This document shows, one piece after another, positions 8,898 through 28,548 of a DNA stretch of 64,000 bases. The position numbers were made by a program, and so were the translations under genes. The notes under the pieces were generated by a model that saw nothing but the letters and a program-made list of their open reading frames with translations, ran no database searches and had not been told where the DNA came from. Each line of letters begins with the position of its first letter. Position 1 is the first letter of the stretch. Location of the stretch: NCBI GenBank assembly GCA_963676155.2, contig CAXXOS010000001.1:509984-573983 (forward strand), in the 5' to 3' direction. The stretch is from Anaerolineales bacterium. Lineage in GTDB: Bacteria > Chloroflexota > Anaerolineae > Anaerolineales > UBA11579.

Positions 8898-9340
8898 TTA
8901 CTAACTCCTGAAACTTCTTGTGGATGTTGAATTTGATTTACGATTGTTTTTGCGGGAAAGGTATCTGGCTCGATATGGACTTGGGCGGGTAAGATGATGG
9001 ATTTGAGCGGATTTTTGTAGAAGGCGTCAGATTCTATTTGTAGCGGAGTGGTGCCGATGAATTTGATGTGTTTGAGCCTGTTTTTTCTAAAGGCGGCAAA
9101 TCTAATCATTTCGATGTGGGGTGGAAAGACTATTTTGGATAGTCTGTTGATGCCAAAGGCTCCATTTTCTATCTCAATGAGGTGATGGGGGAGAATGACT
9201 GAGCGGAGCCCTCTCAAAAAAAAGGCAAAACGACCAATATATTTCACTTTTTGTCCGTCAATGAAATCTGGAATTTGAAGATGTTTTTTGTGTCCGAGAT
9301 ATTGAATTATGGTGTTGTTGAAAAATTTATATTCTTCCAT
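8894..9340 (-). CDS. BspA-type leucine-rich-repeat-like protein
   Basis: Repeated FxxCxxLxxIxIP-like units (AFFLRGLRSVILP, AFGINRLSKIVFP, AFRKNRLKHIKF, AFYKNPLKSIILP). It overlaps the downstream gene by 4 nt. Confidence 0.5.
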   Translation of the reverse strand: MEEYKFFNNTIIQYLGHKKHLQIPDFIDGQKVKYIGRFAFFLRGLRSVILPHHLIEIENGAFGINRLSKIVFPPHIEMIRFAAFRKNRLKHIKFIGTTPLQIESDAFYKNPLKSIILPAQVHIEPDTFPAKTIVNQIQHPQEVSGVSK

Positions 9341-9388
9341 ACTTTCCCTTTCTTTTATTATAGAAGATTTTGGGAAGATGAGTTTAAC

Positions 9389-9414
9389 TAAAAAAGAGCC
9401 GATATGCTGGCTCT
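9389..9414 (-). terminator. rho-independent terminator (minus strand)
   Basis: agagcc gatatgct ggctct, with a plus-strand A-run on the left. It lies downstream of the gene ending at 9440. Confidence 0.45.
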
Positions 9415-9439
9415 TTTGTGATGATTGATTTTTGTGCGA

Positions 9440-10069
9440 TTATTTGGTGGGGGCAGCGGTGAAAGTGAGTTGACCGAGATCGTCTTTGAGGGTGAGGAGG
9501 AGCTGGTCTCCGAGGATGGTATAGGAAGCACTATTGAGGAGGGAGTTTTTGTAGAGTGTGTCGAGGGAGTCGTCTCCGCAATAAACTTCTGTGGTGATGC
9601 CGAGGGTGATGGTGAGGGCGTTGTGGTCTGTGAGTTGGTAGGTGCCGGAGACTATATTGCAATCGGCATTGAGACCGAGTTGGTTTTCTTTTGAAAAGTT
9701 GAGGGTGAAGTTTTGGGGAGTGGGAATTTCAAGCTGTTCTCCGGTTTCATTATTTGTATATTGGATCCATTGCCATGCAGTATTTTGGAGGGGATCTTTT
9801 TGAGTGAGTTGTTCGGGGGTGCATTCGTGGCGATAATATGCCCATTCTTCACATTCGTTGCCATTTTCAAAGACACAGTAGCCGGTTTGATCACCGTTAT
9901 CCGAGGTGCGAATGTCTAGGGTGCCGCCTTGTTCTATGCAGTAGGTGGAGGCGGGATTGGCGAGACCGACAGAAGGATGGTCTGGGTTGGCGATTGTGGG
10001 AGTGCAGGCTGAGAGGGCTAGAAGGAGACTCGTGAGACCGATTAAGGATAGTAGGTTATATTTCTTCAT
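9440..10069 (-). CDS. lipoprotein with DUF333 (putative hemolysin-like) and META/HslJ-like domains
   Basis: Lipobox LLLALSAC. DUF333-like NPASTYCIEQGGTL...GYCVFENGNECEEWAYYRHEC. META-like LTLNFSKENQLGLNADCNIVSGTYQL. Confidence 0.7.
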   Translation of the reverse strand: MKKYNLLSLIGLTSLLLALSACTPTIANPDHPSVGLANPASTYCIEQGGTLDIRTSDNGDQTGYCVFENGNECEEWAYYRHECTPEQLTQKDPLQNTAWQWIQYTNNETGEQLEIPTPQNFTLNFSKENQLGLNADCNIVSGTYQLTDHNALTITLGITTEVYCGDDSLDTLYKNSLLNSASYTILGDQLLLTLKDDLGQLTFTAAPTK

Positions 10070-10589
10070 TTTATTATTCTTTCTTTTTGATATGTATTTG
10101 TATCTCTAGAACGTTGGGAAAAGAAAAAAAGTTCCTGAGTGAAAAAGGTTTATGGAGATTTGGAATAAGGGTCTATAACCTTATTAATTAAGTTATACAT
10201 ATATTAATTAATTAAATAGTTTTAATAGTAGGGGGTGTGGATAAGTTGATAAGTAAAGTGGTTGACGATTTGTGGGGAAATTATTGGAAGATACAGGGGG
10301 GAGCGATGATGATAAAGCCTATATAGGGGGATGTGGCGCGGGAAAAGTTTTCAACAGTGAAAGTTTTTTTCTGGGGAGGAAAATGTTAAAACAGATGTTC
10401 TTTTTGGGAAAAAGGGAAAATTGGAACAGATGTTTTAATTCGGGGGATAAGTGAAGGATTTGGGGAAAAGTTCTCCTCTTTTAGACGAGAGTTTTAATGA
10501 AGATATCCCCTAGATATGGGGGAGTTTTCAACTGTTTTGAGGGATTTTTCCCCAGAAATGGAGGTGGTAAGGTGCTTGATTTTGGGTAT

Positions 10590-10616
10590 AAAAAAAGCTT
10601 CCCTTTTGAAGGAAGC
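10590..10616 (-). terminator. rho-independent terminator downstream of tRNA-Leu (minus strand)
   Basis: gcttcc cttttgaa ggaagc, with a plus-strand A7 run on the left that becomes a T7 run on the minus strand. Confidence 0.55.
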
Positions 10617-10632
10617 CTCTGTTATACTAAGG

Positions 10633-10716
10633 TGCCGAAGGTGGGAATCGAACCCACAATCCCTCTCGAGAACGCGAGTTTGAGTCGCGCGCGTCTGCCA
10701 GTTCCGCCACTTCGGC
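10633..10716 (-). tRNA. tRNA-Leu (anticodon CAA)
   Basis: Minus-strand sequence GCCGAAGTGGCGGAACTGGCAGACGCGCGCGACTCAAACTCGCGTTCTCGAGAGGGATTGTGGGTTCGATTCCCACCTTCGGCA. It has a 7-bp acceptor stem, anticodon stem CGCGA/TCGCG with loop CTCAAAC, a long variable arm and a GGTTCGATTCC T-loop. CCA is not fully encoded. Confidence 0.9.
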
Positions 10717-10792
10717 AACTTGTGACTCGGAAAAGTATAATCAATTTTAGGCGTTGAGTCAAGGCGATTCACGCTTGTTTAAGAGGTATGAA

Positions 10793-11857: not shown

Positions 11858-11874
11858 GGTGTTTTAGGAGTACT

Positions 11875-13644
11875 ATGATGAGTCAAAAATATGAATTAGG
11901 GGCATGGGATCTGAAAGATCTTTATCCCGGATTAAAAACAAAAGAGATGGACGATGCGTTTGCGGAGATGACCCAGCTGGTGGAAGAACTGGAAGGGTAT
12001 CGGGCAAAGTTGAGCGACGATGTGGCTTGGGAGACGGTGAAGACTTATTTGGATGTCTCTGAAAAGTTGAATCGCTTGGTGTATCGTATTTATCAATATG
12101 CAAGTTTGCGCTTCTCTGAAGATTCACAAAATCAGGAAGTTTCTGCTTTCCAAGGGAAGGTGATGCAAGCGGTGGCACAGATGGAAAACCGTTTGTTGTT
12201 CTTTGGGCTGTGGTGGAAGGCTTTGGATGACGCAAATGCTGATCGTTTGTTGGCATTAAGTGGAGAATATGCGTATTATTTGCGCAAGATTCGCAGCTTT
12301 AAGCCGTATACGTTGAGCGAAAAAGAAGAGCAGGTGATTAACACCAAGAATGTGACCGGTGTGAATGCGTTGCAACAAATTTATTCGATGATTACGAGCA
12401 AGTATGAGTTCCCGTTGATGGTGGATGGCGAAGAAAAGCTGTTGACCCGTGGTGAATTGATGACTTATGTGACGGGAAGTGACGAAGAGTTGCGTAAGGC
12501 AGCTTATGATGCGCTCTATGATGTGTTCAGTGCAGATGGAACCGTGTTGGGTGAAATCTATCAGAACATTGTGCGGGATTGGAAGAATGAAAATTTGGAG
12601 ATGCGTGGGTTTGACACGGCGTTGAGCGCACGGAATTTGTCCAATGATATTCCGGATGAAGTGGTGGATGTGCTTTTGGAAGCTGCTCAGGAAAATGTGG
12701 ATGTGTTCCAACGATTTTTTGCTTTGAAGGCGAAGTTGCTGGGTGTGGAGAAGTTGCGTCGTTATGACCTTTATGCACCGGTGACGAAGGCTGATAAGAA
12801 GTATGATTTTGATTTTGCGGTGAATTTGACTTTGGATGCTTATGCAGATTTTGATGCAGAGGTGGCCGGGTTGGCGAAACGTATTTTTGAGAAGGATCAT
12901 TTGCACAGTGCGATTCAGAAGGGGAAGGACACGGGGGCGTTTTGCTCTTATGGCGACCCGGCGTTGACGCCTTATGTGTTGGTGAATTTCAATGGGAATG
13001 CGCGCGATGTGTCTACGTTGGCACATGAGCTGGGGCATGCGATTCATGGGATGTTGGCGGAAGAACATAATGTGTTCAATTATTCTTCTACGTTGCCTTT
13101 GGCAGAGACGGCCTCCACTTTTGGGGAGATGTTGTTGACGGATCGCTTCTTGGCGGTGGAAAAGGACGAAGATGTGCGCCGAGACTTGTTGTTTACGCAG
13201 GTGGATGATGCTTATGCAACGATTCAACGTCAGGCGTTTTTCGCTTTGTTTGAGAAACAAGCACATGCGATGATTGCGGATGGGGCTTCTACGCAGGAGT
13301 TGTGTGAGGCTTATTTGGAGAATTTGAAGACCCAGTTTGGGGATACGATGGATGTGAGTGAGAACTTCCAATGGGAGTGGGTGTGTATTCCGCATATTTA
13401 TCATGTGCCGTTTTATGTGTATGCTTATGCTTTTGGCCAGTTGTTGGTGTTTGCGTTGTATCAGGCTTATAAGGAAGAGGGCGAGAGTTTTATTCCGAAG
13501 TATAAGGCTTTGTTGAGCGCGGGCGGGTCTAAGGAGCCGGTGGTGCTTTTGGAAGAGGCTGGCTTTGATGTGACGAAGAAGAGCTTCTGGCAAGGTGGGT
13601 TTGATTTTATCGCTGGGATGGTGGATGAATTGGAACGTTTATAA
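11875..13644 (+). CDS. pepF: oligoendopeptidase F family (M3B) metallopeptidase
   Basis: HELGHAIH zinc motif, ~590 aa, AGGAG RBS. Confidence 0.9.
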   Translation: MMSQKYELGAWDLKDLYPGLKTKEMDDAFAEMTQLVEELEGYRAKLSDDVAWETVKTYLDVSEKLNRLVYRIYQYASLRFSEDSQNQEVSAFQGKVMQAVAQMENRLLFFGLWWKALDDANADRLLALSGEYAYYLRKIRSFKPYTLSEKEEQVINTKNVTGVNALQQIYSMITSKYEFPLMVDGEEKLLTRGELMTYVTGSDEELRKAAYDALYDVFSADGTVLGEIYQNIVRDWKNENLEMRGFDTALSARNLSNDIPDEVVDVLLEAAQENVDVFQRFFALKAKLLGVEKLRRYDLYAPVTKADKKYDFDFAVNLTLDAYADFDAEVAGLAKRIFEKDHLHSAIQKGKDTGAFCSYGDPALTPYVLVNFNGNARDVSTLAHELGHAIHGMLAEEHNVFNYSSTLPLAETASTFGEMLLTDRFLAVEKDEDVRRDLLFTQVDDAYATIQRQAFFALFEKQAHAMIADGASTQELCEAYLENLKTQFGDTMDVSENFQWEWVCIPHIYHVPFYVYAYAFGQLLVFALYQAYKEEGESFIPKYKALLSAGGSKEPVVLLEEAGFDVTKKSFWQGGFDFIAGMVDELERL

Positions 13645-13677
13645 AGCGCTTGCTCTTTATAACAGATTAGATATTGA

Positions 13678-13709
13678 ACACCCTACTCATTTGAGTAGGG
13701 TGTTTTTTT
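13678..13709 (+). terminator. rho-independent terminator of pepF
   Basis: acaccctactc attt gagtagggtgt forms an 11-bp perfect stem, followed by T7. Confidence 0.8.
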
Positions 13710-13741
13710 ATGCTATGATGTGTTTTTAGTGGAGGAATTTT

Positions 13742-15478
13742 ATGAATAAGTATATAGAAATGATAATTTCTGGTAAATTCTCAAGTAATCAAAATAAAAT
13801 AGAATTTCAATTTCTTTTAGATAATCCCGGAAAAATTAATAGTAATGATTGTGATGATATTGTCAATTATTTTTTTTCTGAGACTTATATTAATTCTGAT
13901 TTCATAAGATTAGATAACTGGGGAAGAGTTTTATATTTTTTTCCTGATTTTTTAAAGTATTTAGATAAAATTCTTGATTATTCATTAATAAATTTTGATA
14001 CAGATTTACAAAGAATTATTTCATATTTTATTTATAGCTTATTTATTTCCTTGAATTCAGATTACTATAAAAATAATAAATATAATCAAAAACATATAAA
14101 TGAATTTGAAAAGGTTTTTGGTCACAGAGAGTTTTTCTCTGGGGGAAAAATATATGAAAAAAATATCGAATTTTCTATTAATTTTCTTGATAATTTAAAC
14201 GATGAAATAATCGAAAATATACAATTTAATAATATCATTTTAAATTGTTTAGATTTTTTATATAAAGATAATGATATTCAAATATATATTAATTATTTAA
14301 TAAAAAAATTATGTGTATTAAACGAGACTATTATTAAATATGATAAAGAGATTGCAACTAATTGTGACACTTATTTTAATTATGTTTTAGATACTCTTTT
14401 TACTGAAAATCATTATATTTTATTATATTTATATAAATTAAAATTAGTAAATAGAAAACAAGAAAGGCAAATCGAAAAAAAAATATATTTAAAAATAAAA
14501 GAAATAGAAAATTTAAAAACACAACAATTAAAAATTCATAAAATTGAAGAAATAATTAATGTAATAAAAATCCTAATAAACATAAATTTCACGTCAAAAA
14601 TTTTGAGAAATAATTTAAAAAAAATAAAAGATTATTTATTGAAATTAAAAAGAAAGATAGTTAGAAATTTTGATTATTCAGAATTAAAAGAAATTCCATT
14701 CAAATGTGAAATTTCTGGAGATCAAATGAGAAATTATTTTCAAAGAATTGATAATAATTTAATAAGATTTATATTTGAAAATGGTTTTATTAATTTTAAT
14801 AATTTAATTGAAGATAGTATAAAACATGTAACAGAAGAAGCTTTGACTGAACTTTTAATTCAGAAATATGCTATTGATGATGTTATAGGGCTAACAAGAA
14901 GTTATAATTTTATAAATGAAAATGACTACATAAGCCAATATTATTCAAATGAAATTGAAAATTATATAAAACAACATGAAGATGAATTAATTAACAAAGG
15001 GCATTTAAAAAAAGAAGATTATTACAAATACTTGTTAGATACAGCAAGATTTAATTACAATTTTATTTATTCTAAAATTTATACAATTATAAAAACCCAT
15101 CTACAAGATCAAACAGAAGATAAAATTTTGAGTAATTTTGTTGGATTAACGATAAATGGTAATCATGAAATTTTGATATTAGCTTTAATTCAACAAATTG
15201 AAGCTAATATTTTACATTTATCTAATTTTATTTTTAATTGTAAAGAAAATCAATATAATGATTTTATGATTTTAAATCTTTTTAAGATTTATGTTGAAAG
15301 ATCAAATTTATTAAATGCAAATTATTTAATGAATGTAAAATTTATTGTATATGATGTTTTTGGAATGAGAATTAGGAATGAATATTCACATGGAAATTAT
15401 TATAGCAGTTATAAAAATTATATTAACTTGCTTGGTATTATTTCAGCTTGGTATATGTCTAATTTATTATTACAATAA
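13742..15478 (+). CDS. large alpha-helical hypothetical protein with a C-terminal HEPN-type Rx4H motif (DUF4209-like architecture)
   Basis: 578-aa uninterrupted ORF in very AT-rich DNA with a GGAGG RBS at 13730. Near the C-terminus, FGMRIRNEYSHGNYY gives R-N-x3-H-G about 35 aa before the stop, as in DUF4209/HEPN proteins. Confidence 0.6.
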   Translation: MNKYIEMIISGKFSSNQNKIEFQFLLDNPGKINSNDCDDIVNYFFSETYINSDFIRLDNWGRVLYFFPDFLKYLDKILDYSLINFDTDLQRIISYFIYSLFISLNSDYYKNNKYNQKHINEFEKVFGHREFFSGGKIYEKNIEFSINFLDNLNDEIIENIQFNNIILNCLDFLYKDNDIQIYINYLIKKLCVLNETIIKYDKEIATNCDTYFNYVLDTLFTENHYILLYLYKLKLVNRKQERQIEKKIYLKIKEIENLKTQQLKIHKIEEIINVIKILININFTSKILRNNLKKIKDYLLKLKRKIVRNFDYSELKEIPFKCEISGDQMRNYFQRIDNNLIRFIFENGFINFNNLIEDSIKHVTEEALTELLIQKYAIDDVIGLTRSYNFINENDYISQYYSNEIENYIKQHEDELINKGHLKKEDYYKYLLDTARFNYNFIYSKIYTIIKTHLQDQTEDKILSNFVGLTINGNHEILILALIQQIEANILHLSNFIFNCKENQYNDFMILNLFKIYVERSNLLNANYLMNVKFIVYDVFGMRIRNEYSHGNYYSSYKNYINLLGIISAWYMSNLLLQ

Positions 15479-15968
15479 CAGGTTATATAACCTGATTGAT
15501 AAAATAAATTTATTTGAACAAACAAATCATATTTTTGGTTATATTGACTACGATTTAATTTTTTATGAAAGCCATAATTGGATATTTCTTTTATATTATC
15601 ATCCGATGATAGAACGAATGGTTAGAATAATTCTTGATGAAGCAGGTGAATTTAATATTGAATTTTTAGAAAGAGAAACTTTTAAAACTTTAAATTCAAT
15701 GCTTGATAATAACAATGAAAAAAAACTTAAAAAAATTTTTGGAAGAGATTTGATTAACTATTTATATGAAGTATTTAAAGCAAATGGAAATAGAAATAAA
15801 ATTTTACATTATGATGAAAAGACAATTATTTATAAAAAAGATATTGATTTAGCAAGAAAAAATTTTATAAAATTAATAAAAATATATTTTTATAAAGTTA
15901 TAAATAAGAAAAAAATCCCCAGCTTTTTTATTTTGAAAATGTATTTTTTGAAAAAAATTCTTAGATAA
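15378..15968 (+). CDS. small hypothetical protein with a second HEPN-type Rx4H motif (start uncertain: 15378, 15390, 15432 or 15606)
   Basis: ORF in another frame overlapping the last 100 nt of the upstream gene. Motif ANGNRNKILHYDEK (R-N-x3-H). The conservative start is the ATG at 15606 (120 aa). Confidence 0.45.
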   Translation: MNIHMEIIIAVIKIILTCLVLFQLGICLIYYYNNRLYNLIDKINLFEQTNHIFGYIDYDLIFYESHNWIFLLYYHPMIERMVRIILDEAGEFNIEFLERETFKTLNSMLDNNNEKKLKKIFGRDLINYLYEVFKANGNRNKILHYDEKTIIYKKDIDLARKNFIKLIKIYFYKVINKKKIPSFFILKMYFLKKILR

Positions 15969-16041
15969 TTTAAAAAATAGCTTGATTTTAGATGACAAAT
16001 CATACATTTATTATACTTAATTAATTTTGTTTACTATAAAA

Positions 16042-16722
16042 ATGGAGAAAGATATGGCAAAGCGGATTGGGATGATTCCTTCGGGGGCGATGACGTTGAT
16101 GCATGTGGATTATGTGTGTGAGAAGTGTGGGCGGGGGTTTGAGCAGGTGTATGTGGTGTATGCGCAGGAGGAATTGCGCGCGCCGTTGCGGGTGTATGAT
16201 GGGGACTTGGCGCGGGTACGAGAGCAGATGGTGGAGATGGATGGGGAGGATGTGAAGGAAGTGGTGCAGGAGGCGTTGGCTGCTCAGAAGGTGGGGGGAT
16301 GGATGCAGGGGATGGCGGGTCAGTTTGCGGAGTTTGCGATGCAGAAGTCGGTGGATAATTTGGAGAAGGTGATGGGGCGGATTGAGAGGATGGTGCGTAA
16401 GGGGGAGTTCTCTTTTGTGAAGCCGGTGGCGTGTGAGTGTGGGCATGTGCAGAGTTGGATGGGGCGACGGAAGCGTTGGGGGGCGATGGTGATTTATGTG
16501 GGATTGATGGTGATGATTGCGGGAGTGTTGAGTGTTGAGGTGTTTGCTTGGGTGCTGACGGAGATGATGGAGACTGTTTTGATAGTGGTGTTGGGGTTGC
16601 TGGGCGTGTTGTTGGTGCTGGATGTGTATCGGATGTTGTTTGGCAGGACGATGTTGAAGTCTGAGCCGAAAGTACGATTTGAGGAGATTCGGATGATGGT
16701 GAATCCGGATGTGGGGTGGTAG
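16042..16722 (+). CDS. zinc-ribbon membrane protein, hypothetical
   Basis: CEKCG...CECGH cysteine pairs and two C-terminal hydrophobic helices, followed by a terminator. I prefer the ATG at 16042. Confidence 0.55.
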   Translation: MEKDMAKRIGMIPSGAMTLMHVDYVCEKCGRGFEQVYVVYAQEELRAPLRVYDGDLARVREQMVEMDGEDVKEVVQEALAAQKVGGWMQGMAGQFAEFAMQKSVDNLEKVMGRIERMVRKGEFSFVKPVACECGHVQSWMGRRKRWGAMVIYVGLMVMIAGVLSVEVFAWVLTEMMETVLIVVLGLLGVLLVLDVYRMLFGRTMLKSEPKVRFEEIRMMVNPDVGW

Positions 16723-16749
16723 GGAGTTGTGAAGAATTGAGATTAAGAA

Positions 16750-16778
16750 CAGGCATTCGAGCGAATGCCTGTTTTTTT
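16750..16778 (+). terminator. rho-independent terminator
   Basis: caggcattcg ag cgaatgcctg followed by T7. Confidence 0.65.
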
Positions 16779-16850
16779 CATTAAGAGGGGGATGATTGAA
16801 TGTCTGATTTTCAATAAGCTCCTAAAATCAGTGAAATGGGGGTATGTTTT

Positions 16851-17804
16851 TTATTGGATGCGCCAAATGTTGAGGGAGTTGATGAGGTAGGTGAAGTTTT
16901 GGGTTTCCCATGGGGAGGAGAGGAGTGCTACACGAGTGCCGTTGGGAAAGAGATTGTCGTAGATGGGGAGTTCGGTGAGGAGGACATCGTTGGCGTAGAG
17001 TTGGATGCTGTTGGCTTGGACGAGGACACCGAGGGTGTTGGCTTGGTGAGAACCAGTGTGAATAGCAGAATTCGCTGTCCAATTGACGAGATAGTTTTTG
17101 GTGTAGGGGGAATAGGATTCTAGACGCCAGAGAGAATATTGCCCGTCACAAGAGAATTGGGCGATATAGCCATTGGTGGTGTTTTGGGCAGAGCGGAAGA
17201 GAATGCCATAGGAATCTTGGTCGGCACATTCTTCTACTTCAACATTCATTTCAATATAAGCGTCTACGGGAGCAGTTGTGATGTGGAAAGGAGTGTCCCA
17301 TTGTGTATAAAGGCTGGTAAAAGTTAGGGGACCCTCATCTACGATAAGAATATAGGAATCATCTTTTTTTGTGGTGAGGAAGGTGTTCCAATTGGTGTGG
17401 TTGAATGCTTTGGCAGGAGAGCCAAATTGTTTTTGAGGATCAATGGAAATTGCGCTGGTGGGTACGGGAGTGAGTGTGGGTGGGGCAGTGGTGTCAGTGG
17501 GAATGAGGGGGGTGGGAGTGTGCGTGGGAAGCTCAGCAGCGGGTTCAGTGGGTTGGTCGTTTTGTTGGGATGTGGATTGTGTGGTTTGCGGGTCTGATGT
17601 GGTGGGTTGCTCTGCGGTTGAGGTGGTTGGTTGGAGGAGGGCATCTGCGGTGAGGGCTGCTTCGGCGGTGGCGGCAAGAGTGGGGAGTTTGACGATTGCT
17701 TCCATATCTGTGGGGGTGGACACCATGGTGCGGGTGCAACTGGGGAGGAAGAGGAGGAGGGCTATGGAGAAAATTATAAAGAAGAATCTTTTGTTTTTAT
17801 TCAT
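16851..17804 (-). CDS. secreted lipoprotein with a Thr/Pro/Gln-rich linker and a LamG/DUF1080-like jelly-roll domain
   Basis: Signal peptide plus lipobox FSIALLLFLPSC. The C-terminal pattern is GILFRSAQNTTNGYIAQFSCDGQYSLWRL...NTLGVLVQANSIQLYANDVLL. I prefer the start at 17804 (MNKNKRFFF), which has an RBS. Confidence 0.6.
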   Translation of the reverse strand: MNKNKRFFFIIFSIALLLFLPSCTRTMVSTPTDMEAIVKLPTLAATAEAALTADALLQPTTSTAEQPTTSDPQTTQSTSQQNDQPTEPAAELPTHTPTPLIPTDTTAPPTLTPVPTSAISIDPQKQFGSPAKAFNHTNWNTFLTTKKDDSYILIVDEGPLTFTSLYTQWDTPFHITTAPVDAYIEMNVEVEECADQDSYGILFRSAQNTTNGYIAQFSCDGQYSLWRLESYSPYTKNYLVNWTANSAIHTGSHQANTLGVLVQANSIQLYANDVLLTELPIYDNLFPNGTRVALLSSPWETQNFTYLINSLNIWRIQ

Positions 17805-17975
17805 GGGTTTCTTTCCGTTTGAGTTTGTTGTTAGTTGTATTTTTATCTGAAAATGGTTTTTGTGCAATTCATTTGGCGCGTGGGTTAGATGAATGGAGGA
17901 TAATTTTTAAGACGTTGAAAATGAGATTATGGTATGCTTAAACGCGATTAATTGAGAAATAGGAGAGTGAATTCA

Positions 17976-18605
17976 ATGTATATTGCGATTGAAGGCGTGA
18001 TTGGAGTGGGGAAAACTACCTTGGCTCGAATGTTGAAAGATGAGTTCGATGCTGAAGTTTTGATGGAAGTTTTTGATGAAAATCCTTTTTTAGCGAAGTT
18101 TTATGAAGATCGGGAACGCTATGCTTTTCAAACGCAGATCTTTTTTTTGCTGAGCCGCTATCATCAACAAACAAAGACTATTCCGACATTTTTGAAAGAG
18201 CACAATTTGGTGACAGATTATACTTTTTCTAAGGATGCGTTGTTTGCAGCGATTAACTTGGAAAGTGATGAGTTGGATATGTATAATGAAGTGCATGAAG
18301 CTTTGGCAGAAAAGATTGAGATGCCTGATTTGTTGGTGTATTTGAAGGCAGACACGGGGGTGTTGATGAAGCGAATTGCGAAGCGAGATCGTTCTTATGA
18401 ACGAAATATGGATGTGAATTATATTGATGCGTTGAATCGGAGTTATGATTCATATTTTACGAATTGTCCTTTGGATGTTAATTTGTTGGTGATTGAAACG
18501 AATGAATTAGATTTTGTGCAGAACGAAGATGATTTTGAGCTTATTTTGGACCGTATTCGACAAGCGTTGAAGATTGGCCCTTACCAGAATGAACTACCTT
18601 TATAA
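17976..18605 (+). CDS. deoxynucleoside kinase
   Basis: MYIAIEGVIGVGKTTLARML P-loop and dNK-family length. AGGAGA RBS before the ATG at 17976. Confidence 0.85.
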   Translation: MYIAIEGVIGVGKTTLARMLKDEFDAEVLMEVFDENPFLAKFYEDRERYAFQTQIFFLLSRYHQQTKTIPTFLKEHNLVTDYTFSKDALFAAINLESDELDMYNEVHEALAEKIEMPDLLVYLKADTGVLMKRIAKRDRSYERNMDVNYIDALNRSYDSYFTNCPLDVNLLVIETNELDFVQNEDDFELILDRIRQALKIGPYQNELPL

Positions 18606-26931: not shown

Positions 26932-27819
26932 ATGGCTACTAAAGAATTTAGTTTTGATTTTTCAAAGAATACTTTGTTTTTCAAAGTTTATTTATTAATG
27001 CAAGGCTTTTTCCTTGCATTAATTTTTTTAACTTTAGTGTTACCTAGCAGTGGGTTTCGGTTGTTTTTAATCTATTTTATTCTGATATTTAATTTTTTGT
27101 TGATTTTTCTTTTGATATCTTTATTGTTTTTTAGTTATCAGAAATTTAGAAAAGGATATTCCATTAAAAATAATATTGAAATTACATTTAAACAATATAT
27201 CAAATTTTCTGTAGAAAATTTTTTTGGCAATAAGCTGTTTAAACTGTTAGGAATTTTAGGAGGCATATTTGTTACTATTTCTTTATGTTGTGTTACTCCT
27301 ACCATGTGTGCTAACACTTCTGCTGACTTAGAACCAACACCGACGATTACAATGACTCCCACGCTCACATTAACTCCTACTATTACAGCAACGCCAACAT
27401 TAACTTTAGTTCCGACGATTACACAAACACCTTCTGTTACACCTACACTGTTATATGTATGCGCATATGATAATTACAATTGTAATAGTTTTTGGGATTT
27501 GAATACATCAATCGAAATTTATACTTACTGTTTTAATCTTGGGTATGGGGATGTGCATAATATGGATTCTGATAATAATGGGATTGCGTGTGAAACGAAT
27601 GATTTTCCGACTGCCGAGCCGACGGTAGTTTATTTTCAACCAACGGCTAGTACTTCTAATACAACAGATGCTCCTTGTTTGTGTGATAGAGATCGCTATA
27701 ATTGTTCTGGAGATAAATCAATTCCGAATATTCAGGCTTGCTTTAATTATTGTAAGGAAATAGGCATGGGAGATATTCATGGTTTTGATGGGGATGGAGA
27801 TGGATGGCCATGTGAATAA
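26932..27819 (+). CDS. membrane-anchored protein with a Thr/Pro linker and two Excalibur calcium-binding domains
   Basis: N-terminal TM helices, the TPT-rich segment PTPTITMTPTLTLTPTITATPTLTLVPTITQTP, and two DxDxDGxxCE motifs (DSDNNGIACE, DGDGDGWPCE). Confidence 0.7.
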   Translation: MATKEFSFDFSKNTLFFKVYLLMQGFFLALIFLTLVLPSSGFRLFLIYFILIFNFLLIFLLISLLFFSYQKFRKGYSIKNNIEITFKQYIKFSVENFFGNKLFKLLGILGGIFVTISLCCVTPTMCANTSADLEPTPTITMTPTLTLTPTITATPTLTLVPTITQTPSVTPTLLYVCAYDNYNCNSFWDLNTSIEIYTYCFNLGYGDVHNMDSDNNGIACETNDFPTAEPTVVYFQPTASTSNTTDAPCLCDRDRYNCSGDKSIPNIQACFNYCKEIGMGDIHGFDGDGDGWPCE

Positions 27820-27830
27820 TAAATATAAAA

Positions 27831-27854
27831 AGCTGAGAAAACCTCAGCTTTTTT
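27831..27854 (+). terminator. rho-independent terminator
   Basis: agctgag aaaac ctcagct followed by a T-run. Confidence 0.6.
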
Positions 27855-27930
27855 AAAACTTTAATACGGAGAGATAGGATTTAACGTTATAATCACAGCA
27901 CCAAAAAATAATTAAGAAAAGAGATGTTGC

Positions 27931-28548
27931 ATGCCTTTTATTAGTTTTGAAGGTCCTGATGGAAGTGGCAAAACGAGCCAAGTTAAACCTTTGGCCGCAT
28001 TGTTGCGCGAGAAGGGCTATGTTGTGTTTTGTACACGTGAGCCGGGTGGAACGCCGATTGGTGAAGCGGTGCGCAAAACTTTGTTTGATTTGAATTTCAA
28101 AGAAATGCATCCCAGAACTGAAATTTTGTTGTTCCAAGCTTCGCGAGCGCAATTGGTGGCGGAAGAAATTTTGCCCCGATTGGCAAGAGGCGAAGTGGTG
28201 TTGTGTGATCGGTATATGGATTCGACATTGGCGTATCAGGGGTATGGGCATGAGACGAATATTGAAGAATTGCGCAATGTGGTGAATTTTGCGACAGGTG
28301 GCTTGAAACCTGATTTGACGTTGTTGTTTGATGTGGATGCAGAGACGGGGCTGCGAAGACGCCAGCAAGAAGGGGATTGGAACCGATTAGATGATTATGA
28401 GGTGCAATTCCATCGTCGCGTGCAGGTGGGCTATCACACTTTGGCAGCCGAAGAACCGAACCGATGGCAGAAGATTGATGCTTCGCAAAGCAAAGATGCG
28501 GTGCAAGAAGATATTCATAAAATTGTGCTTGAATTTTTAGGGGAATAA
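27931..28548 (+). CDS. tmk: thymidylate kinase
   Basis: FISFEGPDGSGKTSQ...CTREPGGT...DRYMDSTLAYQG. Confidence 0.9.
   Translation: MPFISFEGPDGSGKTSQVKPLAALLREKGYVVFCTREPGGTPIGEAVRKTLFDLNFKEMHPRTEILLFQASRAQLVAEEILPRLARGEVVLCDRYMDSTLAYQGYGHETNIEELRNVVNFATGGLKPDLTLLFDVDAETGLRRRQQEGDWNRLDDYEVQFHRRVQVGYHTLAAEEPNRWQKIDASQSKDAVQEDIHKIVLEFLGE

Follow-up and report, generated by a model that had tools for sequence, protein, structure and literature searches.

What is encoded by the two genes that fill a short, extremely AT-rich block directly downstream of pepF in an Anaerolineales genome, and how did they come to be there? The block lies in the 64,000-nucleotide window analysed here (contig CAXXOS010000001.1, positions 509,984 to 573,983), and its open reading frames (ORFs) are referred to as ORF A and ORF B. 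The original prediction, made from the DNA letters alone, regarded them as a horizontally acquired pair of HEPN-type ribonuclease (RNase) genes. Judged from the sequences of homologous loci, the block has the two-gene form of a cassette, A-(M)-B, that is conserved but rare and in many loci has a third gene, M, between the other two. Our best explanation, to which we give an even chance of being right, is that a HEPN-type RNase conflict module was acquired here by horizontal transfer and that its active site would be composite, built from two proteins. The coordinates of all features are collected in Table 1.

When 1.84 billion cluster representatives were scanned in full with HMMER, 14 relatives of ORF A with 23-29% identity were recovered, most of them full length (590-630 aa), and 36 further A loci came from metagenome contigs searched with a pattern. 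The hidden Markov model (HMM) of the family has a coverage of residues 5-582. A word-indexed search of 5.8 billion proteins, also performed with a profile as the query, returned only ORF A itself, the search being probably swamped by low-complexity words. The strictly invariant positions of the family (14/14) are N418, Y428, E487, F514 and the block G541-x3-R545-x4-H550-G551. G541, R545, H550 and G551 are moreover retained in all 39 unique C-terminal A sequences, and the residue after the arginine is asparagine in 36 of them and aspartate in the rest. ORF A contains a single Rx4H motif, RNEYSHG at residues 545-551, and its R545-N-x3-H550 has the form of the HEPN signature, Rx4-6H with a polar residue after R.

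The Pfam model of DUF4209 (PF13910) matched eight of the 14 members of the family on their last 60-80 residues, as mapped in P0005, P0008, P0011 and P0012. With the gathering score set at 22.3 bits, P0008 (30.4 bits) and P0011 (22.5 bits) exceed it and P0005 (22.1 bits) lies just below. The DUF4209 architecture that had been proposed for ORF A thus stands at the level of the family, with two members above the gathering score, and fails for the window sequence taken alone, which is too diverged. DUF4209 overlaps the C6orf70 (ERMARD) family and was classed, by prediction, as a catalytically active HEPN family; its members occur in bacteria within operons related to restriction-modification (R-M) and also in eukaryotes (Anantharaman et al. 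2013, PMC3710099). The last ~100 residues of A are therefore a predicted DUF4209 (C6orf70/ERMARD-type) HEPN domain.

ORF B represents a family of small proteins of ~145 aa. It also contains a single Rx4H, RNKILH, and this Rx4-6H motif is conserved in the family. In the most conserved block, P-x-I-E, the proline and the glutamate are present in 37/37 unique sequences, and the longer form PMIER..R in 11/11 sequences of a smaller alignment. The searches of Pfam, NCBIfam, PADLOC and PHROGs gave nothing meaningful for ORF B, the word-indexed search found only the protein itself, and the scans of metagenome and viral contigs with the B profile, for which a single short peptide pattern was usable, yielded no confirmed relative. 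The AlphaFold2 model built from an 11-sequence alignment (predicted local distance difference test, pLDDT, 83.3; predicted TM-score, pTM, 0.78) is helical with one small hairpin. Among its weak PDB matches the top TM-scores belong to HEPN proteins (2hsb, 0.46/0.58; HEPN-MNT 8xeh, 0.38/0.46), and further HEPN proteins, 5yep (0.34/0.40) and AbiV 9bj7, are found among the weak Foldseek matches. Profile searches of A, B and M against the PDB sequences found nothing.

Each ORF therefore carries one R-N-x3-H motif, as had been predicted, and both the R and the H are invariant or nearly so in their families (A, 39/39; B, 36/37). A lone Rx4H in a protein of the length of ORF A is not improbable in itself; it is the conservation that makes the motifs appear to be more than chance, since Rx4H provides the most conserved positions of both the A and the B families.

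The two genes are closely linked. On the contigs of ten looked-up A homologs, nine have an ORF of 135-154 aa directly downstream of A that is 33-41% identical to ORF B, and the tenth homolog, P0012 (752 aa), is a natural A-B fusion. Likewise, a local HMM scan found B downstream of A in 32/36 metagenome loci; two of these contigs end before B would be reached and were left out of the denominator, which gives 32/34 testable loci. In total, with the fusion included, the linkage is seen in 42/44 testable loci, in agreement with the expectation that the two genes co-occur. The two exceptions are L035, where the short ORF after A (752-1003) resembles, by eye only, the C-terminal fragment of an HsdM-type DNA methyltransferase, and L043, where A is followed by a truncated M (1806-2027) and no B. 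In every other two-gene locus examined the start of B is an ATG or GTG within a few codons of the A stop, overlapping or abutting it, except in L009, where B starts 63 nt downstream. As the B starts adjoin or overlap the stop codon of A, the arrangement suggests that A and B are translationally coupled in the other loci.

The partners also resemble each other. The hhalign comparison of the C-terminal domain of A with B gave P 0.005 with the first alignments and, with expanded alignments, a score of 26.0 (P 0.003), while the maximum among the controls (one reversed and 30 column-shuffled alignments) was 16.6. The I-E and R-N-x3-H elements of the A domain and of B are in register, with a spacing of 58 residues in A and 60 in B. 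MAFFT, unprompted, aligned the A domains onto B, and E, G, R and H are invariant over the 23 sequences. The HMM of the A domain enriched real B sequences over shuffled ones with marginal scores. On the basis of these comparisons, B is likely to be another HEPN-like module and a distant relative of the A domain. The suggestion that the block encodes a HEPN-HEPN pair accordingly holds for A through its family, and for B it finds weak backing (hhalign P 0.003).

Two other interpretations of ORF B were considered and rejected. It is not a membrane protein, because in the 196-aa reading the first 30 residues, which are hydrophobic, are not part of the family core and overlap ORF A, out of frame, in AT-rich DNA. 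Nor do ORF A and ORF B make up a single gene split by a frameshift: the C-terminal helix of A is complete before the protein ends, as in the homologs, and ~40 loci have B as a gene of its own.

The third gene, M, encodes 124-196 aa and was detected between A and B in five of the ten looked-up homologs (6/11 of their loci) and in 11/36 metagenome loci, with a diverged M recognised by eye in four more. The loci that carry it include L011, L013, L014, L016, L017, L019, L022 and L029, and its conserved residues are E-L-x2-K, H-x-[IL]-x2-L and Y-x3-R-Y-N. The two-gene form is shared by five looked-up loci and many metagenome loci. A likeness of M to classical PF05168-type HEPN proteins, based on these motifs, found no support in Pfam, in the PDB profile search or in hhalign and was rejected.

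The composition of the block separates it sharply from its surroundings. The G + C fraction is 0.44-0.49 in pepF, 0.15-0.22 from 13.8 to 16.0 kb and 0.52-0.56 in the next gene; the block itself (13710-16026) has a G + C content of 18.6%, whereas pepF has 46.4% and the gene after the block 55.2%. The GC skew in the block (0.07-0.37) is below that of the flanks (0.3-0.69). The ORF scan showed that the block is filled by exactly two long ORFs on the same strand, at 13742-15478 and 15378-15968. Everything that had been described for this block was confirmed: the aberrant AT-rich composition, the two same-strand ORFs, the strong pepF terminator at the left edge, and the base counts, which are exact (G2/C6 at 14041-14100 and G28/C5 at 16081-16140). 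In the window as a whole (1-64000), a plus-strand excess of G over C (skew +0.1 to +0.6 in 1-kb windows) is seen nearly throughout, independent of gene strand, the exceptions being AT-rich or atypical patches at 1-1000, 4001-5000 and 27001-28000.

The absence of an integrase and of flanking repeats, noted from the start, is also what the ORF, library and repeat scans returned: there is no integrase ORF in the window according to the ORF list and the library scans, and around the island only AT-rich repeats of chance level were found. No tRNA gene lies next to the island, the sole one in the window being tRNA-Leu (10631-10716), 3 kb upstream, and no repeat array of the CRISPR type was found in or beside it. 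The atypical composition, together with the presence of other cargo at the same site in a close relative, marks the block as a genomic island; the integrase, tRNA target and direct repeats by which such islands are also recognised were not found here.

The closest match of the pepF protein is in the Anaerolineales metagenome-assembled genome OY760067.1 (99% protein identity, ~89% DNA identity), hereafter the sister genome. In blastn alignments the collinearity of the window with it ends at 13761 and restarts at 16054. Between the same flanking genes the sister genome holds another AT-rich insert of 4 kb (11883-15922; G + C fraction 0.20-0.36) with four ORFs. ORF 1 (12036-12941) encodes a SIR2_2-domain protein (E 1.6e-23), which in PADLOC resembles ThsA, PDC-S25, LmuA and Dsr1. 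Of the others, one is a 147-aa partner, and two, of 280 and 255 aa, are on the minus strand; the N-termini of these two resemble signal peptides or those of lipoproteins, and neither has a family match. Both genomes share the terminator, the promoter-like site with the segment that holds it, the GGAGG and about 13 codons at the start of ORF A. The frame in the sister genome stops after 18 codons, MNKYVKFLLNDKFNTSYI being followed directly by the stop codon (11866-11921). Because this frame starts with the N-terminus typical of the ORF A family, MNKY[IV], the sister genome retains a relic of an A-type gene whose body has been replaced. In a more distant relative, L004, pepF is followed by dNK without any insert; dNK of the window lies further downstream.

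The pepF-downstream site is thus a strain-variable exchange site for defence-type, very AT-rich cargo, as the sister genome has other cargo and a relic there and L004 is insert-free, and the pepF terminator is its left edge. As neither the closest genome nor the more distant relatives have it, the block is an insert and not an ordinary core gene, as had been supposed. The jump in composition and the strain-specific insertion support horizontal acquisition from a very low-GC donor. The locus represents a defence-gene exchange site in the poorly studied Anaerolineales, where very low-GC cargo is swapped without an obvious integrase. A second indel occurs nearby: the sister genome has 1.6 kb (16590-18255) without a counterpart in the window (junction 16722-16744), carrying genes for an HTH_3 membrane protein and BacA/UppP between a zinc-ribbon membrane gene and a lipoprotein-like gene.

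The neighbours of A were annotated with family libraries in the ten looked-up loci, and by eye and with a PDB search in the metagenome locus L044. L008 contains a CD-NTase of a cyclic-oligonucleotide-based anti-phage signalling system (CBASS) with Cap15 and an AAA/S8 peptidase pair; L015 contains DUF4238, two PIN_12 genes, GmrSD and Fic; a WYL regulator is found in L009 and, two genes upstream, an EcoP15I-Mod-like methyltransferase in L044. Relaxase, a type IV secretion coupling protein and IS1595 surround the cassette in L010, terminase, portal and an nSTAND3 protein in L013, and phage-type replication genes in L011. Taken together, the loci occur with R-M and CBASS genes, in defence islands, on a conjugative element and in prophage-like regions. 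Among annotated phages and plasmids, no carrier of the A family was found by tblastn of the A homologs or by megablast of two gut loci against phages. Almost all homolog loci have a G + C content of 21-30%, one contig name stating a human gut origin, and a very low-GC donor for the 18.6% island fits these values. L044 also holds, at 8901-10766, ~1.4 kb past its A-M-B cassette with a peptide deformylase-like gene between, a 621-aa ORF with an R-x4-H of its own (VRRYFVHS) and no PDB relative; it is a possible further defence gene of the HEPN type within this island.

As the same site of the sister genome carries another defence-type gene, the cassette is probably an anti-phage or toxin module, the defence role being suggested by the genomic context. 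Many immune systems use HEPN RNases as their effectors, among them Cas13, Csm6, RNase L, Abi proteins and HEPN-MNT toxins. The enzymes are active as dimers, with a site formed from two Rx4-6H motifs, which in Cas13 are supplied by two distinct HEPN domains within a single chain. In the proposed mechanism, A and B would be co-produced and bind each other, and by this heterodimerisation the two Rx4H motifs would be united in a shared, composite RNase site of the kind known from HEPN dimers and from Cas13. The helical N-terminal region of A (~470 residues) would act as a regulator or sensor that keeps the nuclease off until a trigger, e.g., phage infection, after which RNA cleavage would lead to growth arrest or abortive infection. 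The heteromeric, composite-site reading is favoured because two motif-bearing modules are co-encoded, usually coupled and once fused, with R, N, H and E kept. A wider version, which we put forward only tentatively, is that A-(M)-B is a new multi-protein defence system of two HEPN-type proteins, or three if M is HEPN-like, forming a hetero-oligomeric RNase with a composite site and using the N-terminal region of A as an infection sensor; such a system would match the bipartite HEPN site of Cas13 with proteins only.

The main rival explanation is a toxin-antitoxin pair that serves the addiction or stabilisation of mobile elements, in which A would be a HEPN RNase toxin and B an antitoxin occupying its dimer interface, or the reverse. 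A small second gene translationally coupled to a large one, the occurrence of the cassette on a conjugative element and in prophage-like regions, and the lack of any other regulator visible in the window would all suit such a pair. However, the near-invariance of the R-N-x3-H and E of B itself is unexpected for a mere blocker, and the P0012 fusion is unusual for a toxin and a labile antitoxin. Many loci moreover have three genes, and the library scans detected no DNA-binding domain in B. As B keeps catalytic-type residues and is once fused to A, we regard the toxin-antitoxin explanation as less likely, and on the whole as unlikely. Nor is it probable that the HEPN label is superficial and that the conserved R and H serve nucleic-acid binding, sensing or mobile-element anti-defence; of the explanations considered we find this one the hardest to believe. 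It could be argued from the purely computational assignment of DUF4209 to HEPN, from the non-significant fold search with B and from the lack of a solved structure related by sequence. Against this, G-x3-R-[ND]-x3-H-G, in which R is followed by a polar residue as it is in active HEPN families, is the sole strictly invariant block, two members pass the Pfam gathering score, and most of the annotated loci have defence or R-M neighbours rather than phage early or anti-defence genes.

A decaying remnant, i.e., an acquired cassette that is non-functional here and is being overwritten as in the sister genome, appears quite unlikely, and it draws on details of the window itself. At 15471, the start position of the B family, the window has TAC, and the nearest canonical starts are TTG 15432, 39 nt upstream (+13 residues), and ATG 15606, inside the conserved core; the frame of B is open from 15378 to 15968 and gives 196 aa to the first ATG. 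Because the usual start is lost, B may be weakly translated or starting to decay in this genome, with the conserved residues of both proteins intact. The reduction of an A-type gene at the same site to 18 codons in the sister genome, the missing M and two deviations of the window A at near-invariant positions (K for N and V for L, each conserved in 37/39) point in the same direction. Yet both frames are fully open in 18%-GC DNA, where stops arise easily, and a 578-codon open frame would not persist there by chance. Every invariant residue of A and B is intact, TTG 15432 is a usable start and was chosen by the public gene call, and A-B cassettes without M are found in many other loci.

Besides the lost start of B, several points weigh against the module of two HEPN-type RNase subunits that we prefer. 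ORF A itself has no match in Pfam, NCBIfam, PADLOC or PHROGs, and as eight of its 14 relatives do match, its membership of DUF4209 holds through the family and not for the sequence alone; its single-sequence AlphaFold2 model (pLDDT 38) is unusable. A HEPN fold of ORF B is plausible rather than established: its model had no Foldseek match at E<=0.001 in PDB or BFVD, one of 11 B members had a weak Pfam match to DUF4209 (E 0.008), and in the reverse search the B HMM scored the A domains no higher than shuffled controls. The window has the two-gene form without M, and the annotation of neighbours covers the ten looked-up loci and, of the 36 metagenome loci, L044. To our knowledge, RNase activity has been demonstrated for none of the bacterial DUF4209 proteins.

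Table 1. Features of the AT-rich block downstream of pepF (positions in the 64,000-nucleotide window).
Feature	Position	Strand	Description
pepF intrinsic terminator	13676-13705	+	13-bp stem with 6 GC pairs, then T run; conserved in the sister genome
Promoter-like site TTGAGT-17-TATGAT, TG 5' of the -10 hexamer	13691-13719	+	Consensus scan; upstream of ORF A
GGAGG ribosome-binding site	13731-13735	+	6 nt before the ORF A start; identical in the sister genome upstream of the relic
ORF A, 578 aa, largely helical, ~600-aa family	13742-15478	+	ORF list, homolog search
Segment without counterpart in the sister genome (replaceable cargo)	13762-16053		blastn and junction alignments
ORF A C-terminal region (~residues 470-578), including E487	15149-15475	+	Equivalent to the part of the homologs matched by DUF4209; alignment
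ORF A Rx4H motif, R545-N-E-Y-S-H550-G551	15374-15394	+	Family alignment
ORF B, 178 aa from TTG 15432, helical	15432-15968	+	Public gene call; conserved core from 15471
Perfect 16-nt palindrome CAGGTTATATAACCTG	15479-15494		Directly 3' of the ORF A stop, in the N-terminal part of ORF B
ORF B P-M-I-E-R-x-x-R	15603-15626	+	Most conserved block of the B family; aligns with I-E of the A domain
ORF B Rx4H motif, R-N-K-I-L-H	15792-15809	+	R 36/37, N 35/37, H 36/37

Other genes of unusual composition are present elsewhere in the window. At 808-1617 (minus strand), in a low-GC patch (0.26-0.37 in the two covering 1-kb windows), a PLD-family nuclease domain is fused to DpnI_C, a Dam-replacing helix-turn-helix, and this is probably another acquired restriction-type gene. 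At 4018-6672 (plus strand) an 884-aa ROCO protein with leucine-rich repeats, a Roc GTPase, COR-A and COR-B is encoded; the sister genome lacks a DNA match to its repeat part (4097-5080), where the GC skew is reversed, and the 3' part of the gene has a G + C fraction of 0.26-0.35. Two AT-rich patches contain, respectively, a 270-aa ORF without a Pfam match (6663-7475, minus strand, G + C ~0.26) and a gene for a 295-aa protein with an Excalibur calcium-binding motif (26932-27819, plus strand, G + C ~0.33).

Among known families the cassette is closest to DUF4209/C6orf70 (PF13910; PMC3710099), with which A shares the C-terminal domain of ~90 residues with R-N-x3-H-G, the large helical N-terminal region and, through its two members above the gathering score, the Pfam model; bacterial versions of that family have likewise been described in R-M-related neighbourhoods (PMC3710099). 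In contrast, the window protein is below detection, the A family forms a branch that is divergent and of very low GC, and PMC3710099 describes neither the obligatory small partner B nor an optional M. The PADLOC candidate PDC-S39, with profiles of 595-615 positions, is similar in protein length. Residues 515-562 of P0008 match positions 514-561 of a PDC-S39 profile, i.e., the HEPN motif region (48 residues, E 2.2e-5), and ORF B has a faint match to the same region (E 0.023); ORF A and the four other A members tested gave none. However, the likeness is confined to this region of ~50 residues and does not extend over the full length, and PDC-S39 is a single-gene and itself unvalidated candidate, whereas the cassette has two or three genes.

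The comparison with Cas13 is one of principle. Two non-identical Rx4H modules occur together, and once in one chain (P0012), which suggests by analogy a pseudo-dimeric site; unlike type VI CRISPR systems, the cassette has no CRISPR array, guide RNA or sequence similarity to Cas13, and neither ORF A nor ORF B matches a Cas family in NCBIfam or PADLOC. HEPN-MNT (HepT-MntA), AbiD/F, AbiV, AbiJ and ApeA are likewise small or medium helical Rx4-6H proteins of growth arrest or abortive infection, and structures of HEPN-MNT and AbiV are among the best TM-scores of B. HEPN-MNT differs in the partner, which here is another HEPN-like protein: no nucleotidyltransferase (MNT) is found next to A or B in the island or in the tables of the looked-up loci, and neither ORF matches one. 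The Abi proteins differ as well, since apart from DUF4209 the A and B families have no Pfam match to Abi_2, AbiV or other HEPN models.

If the preferred reading is true, the cassette would be a simple and testable example of a heteromeric HEPN nuclease that does not belong to CRISPR, and it would give the bacterial DUF4209/ERMARD family, with its uncharacterised eukaryotic relatives, a first functional context. The obligatory pairing of A with B, the fusion and the frequent third gene were not found in the family libraries or the literature searched. We regard the candidate as valid and not as a system of a wholly new category: the prediction that DUF4209 is a HEPN family dates from 2013, and the related PDC-S39 is already listed in PADLOC.

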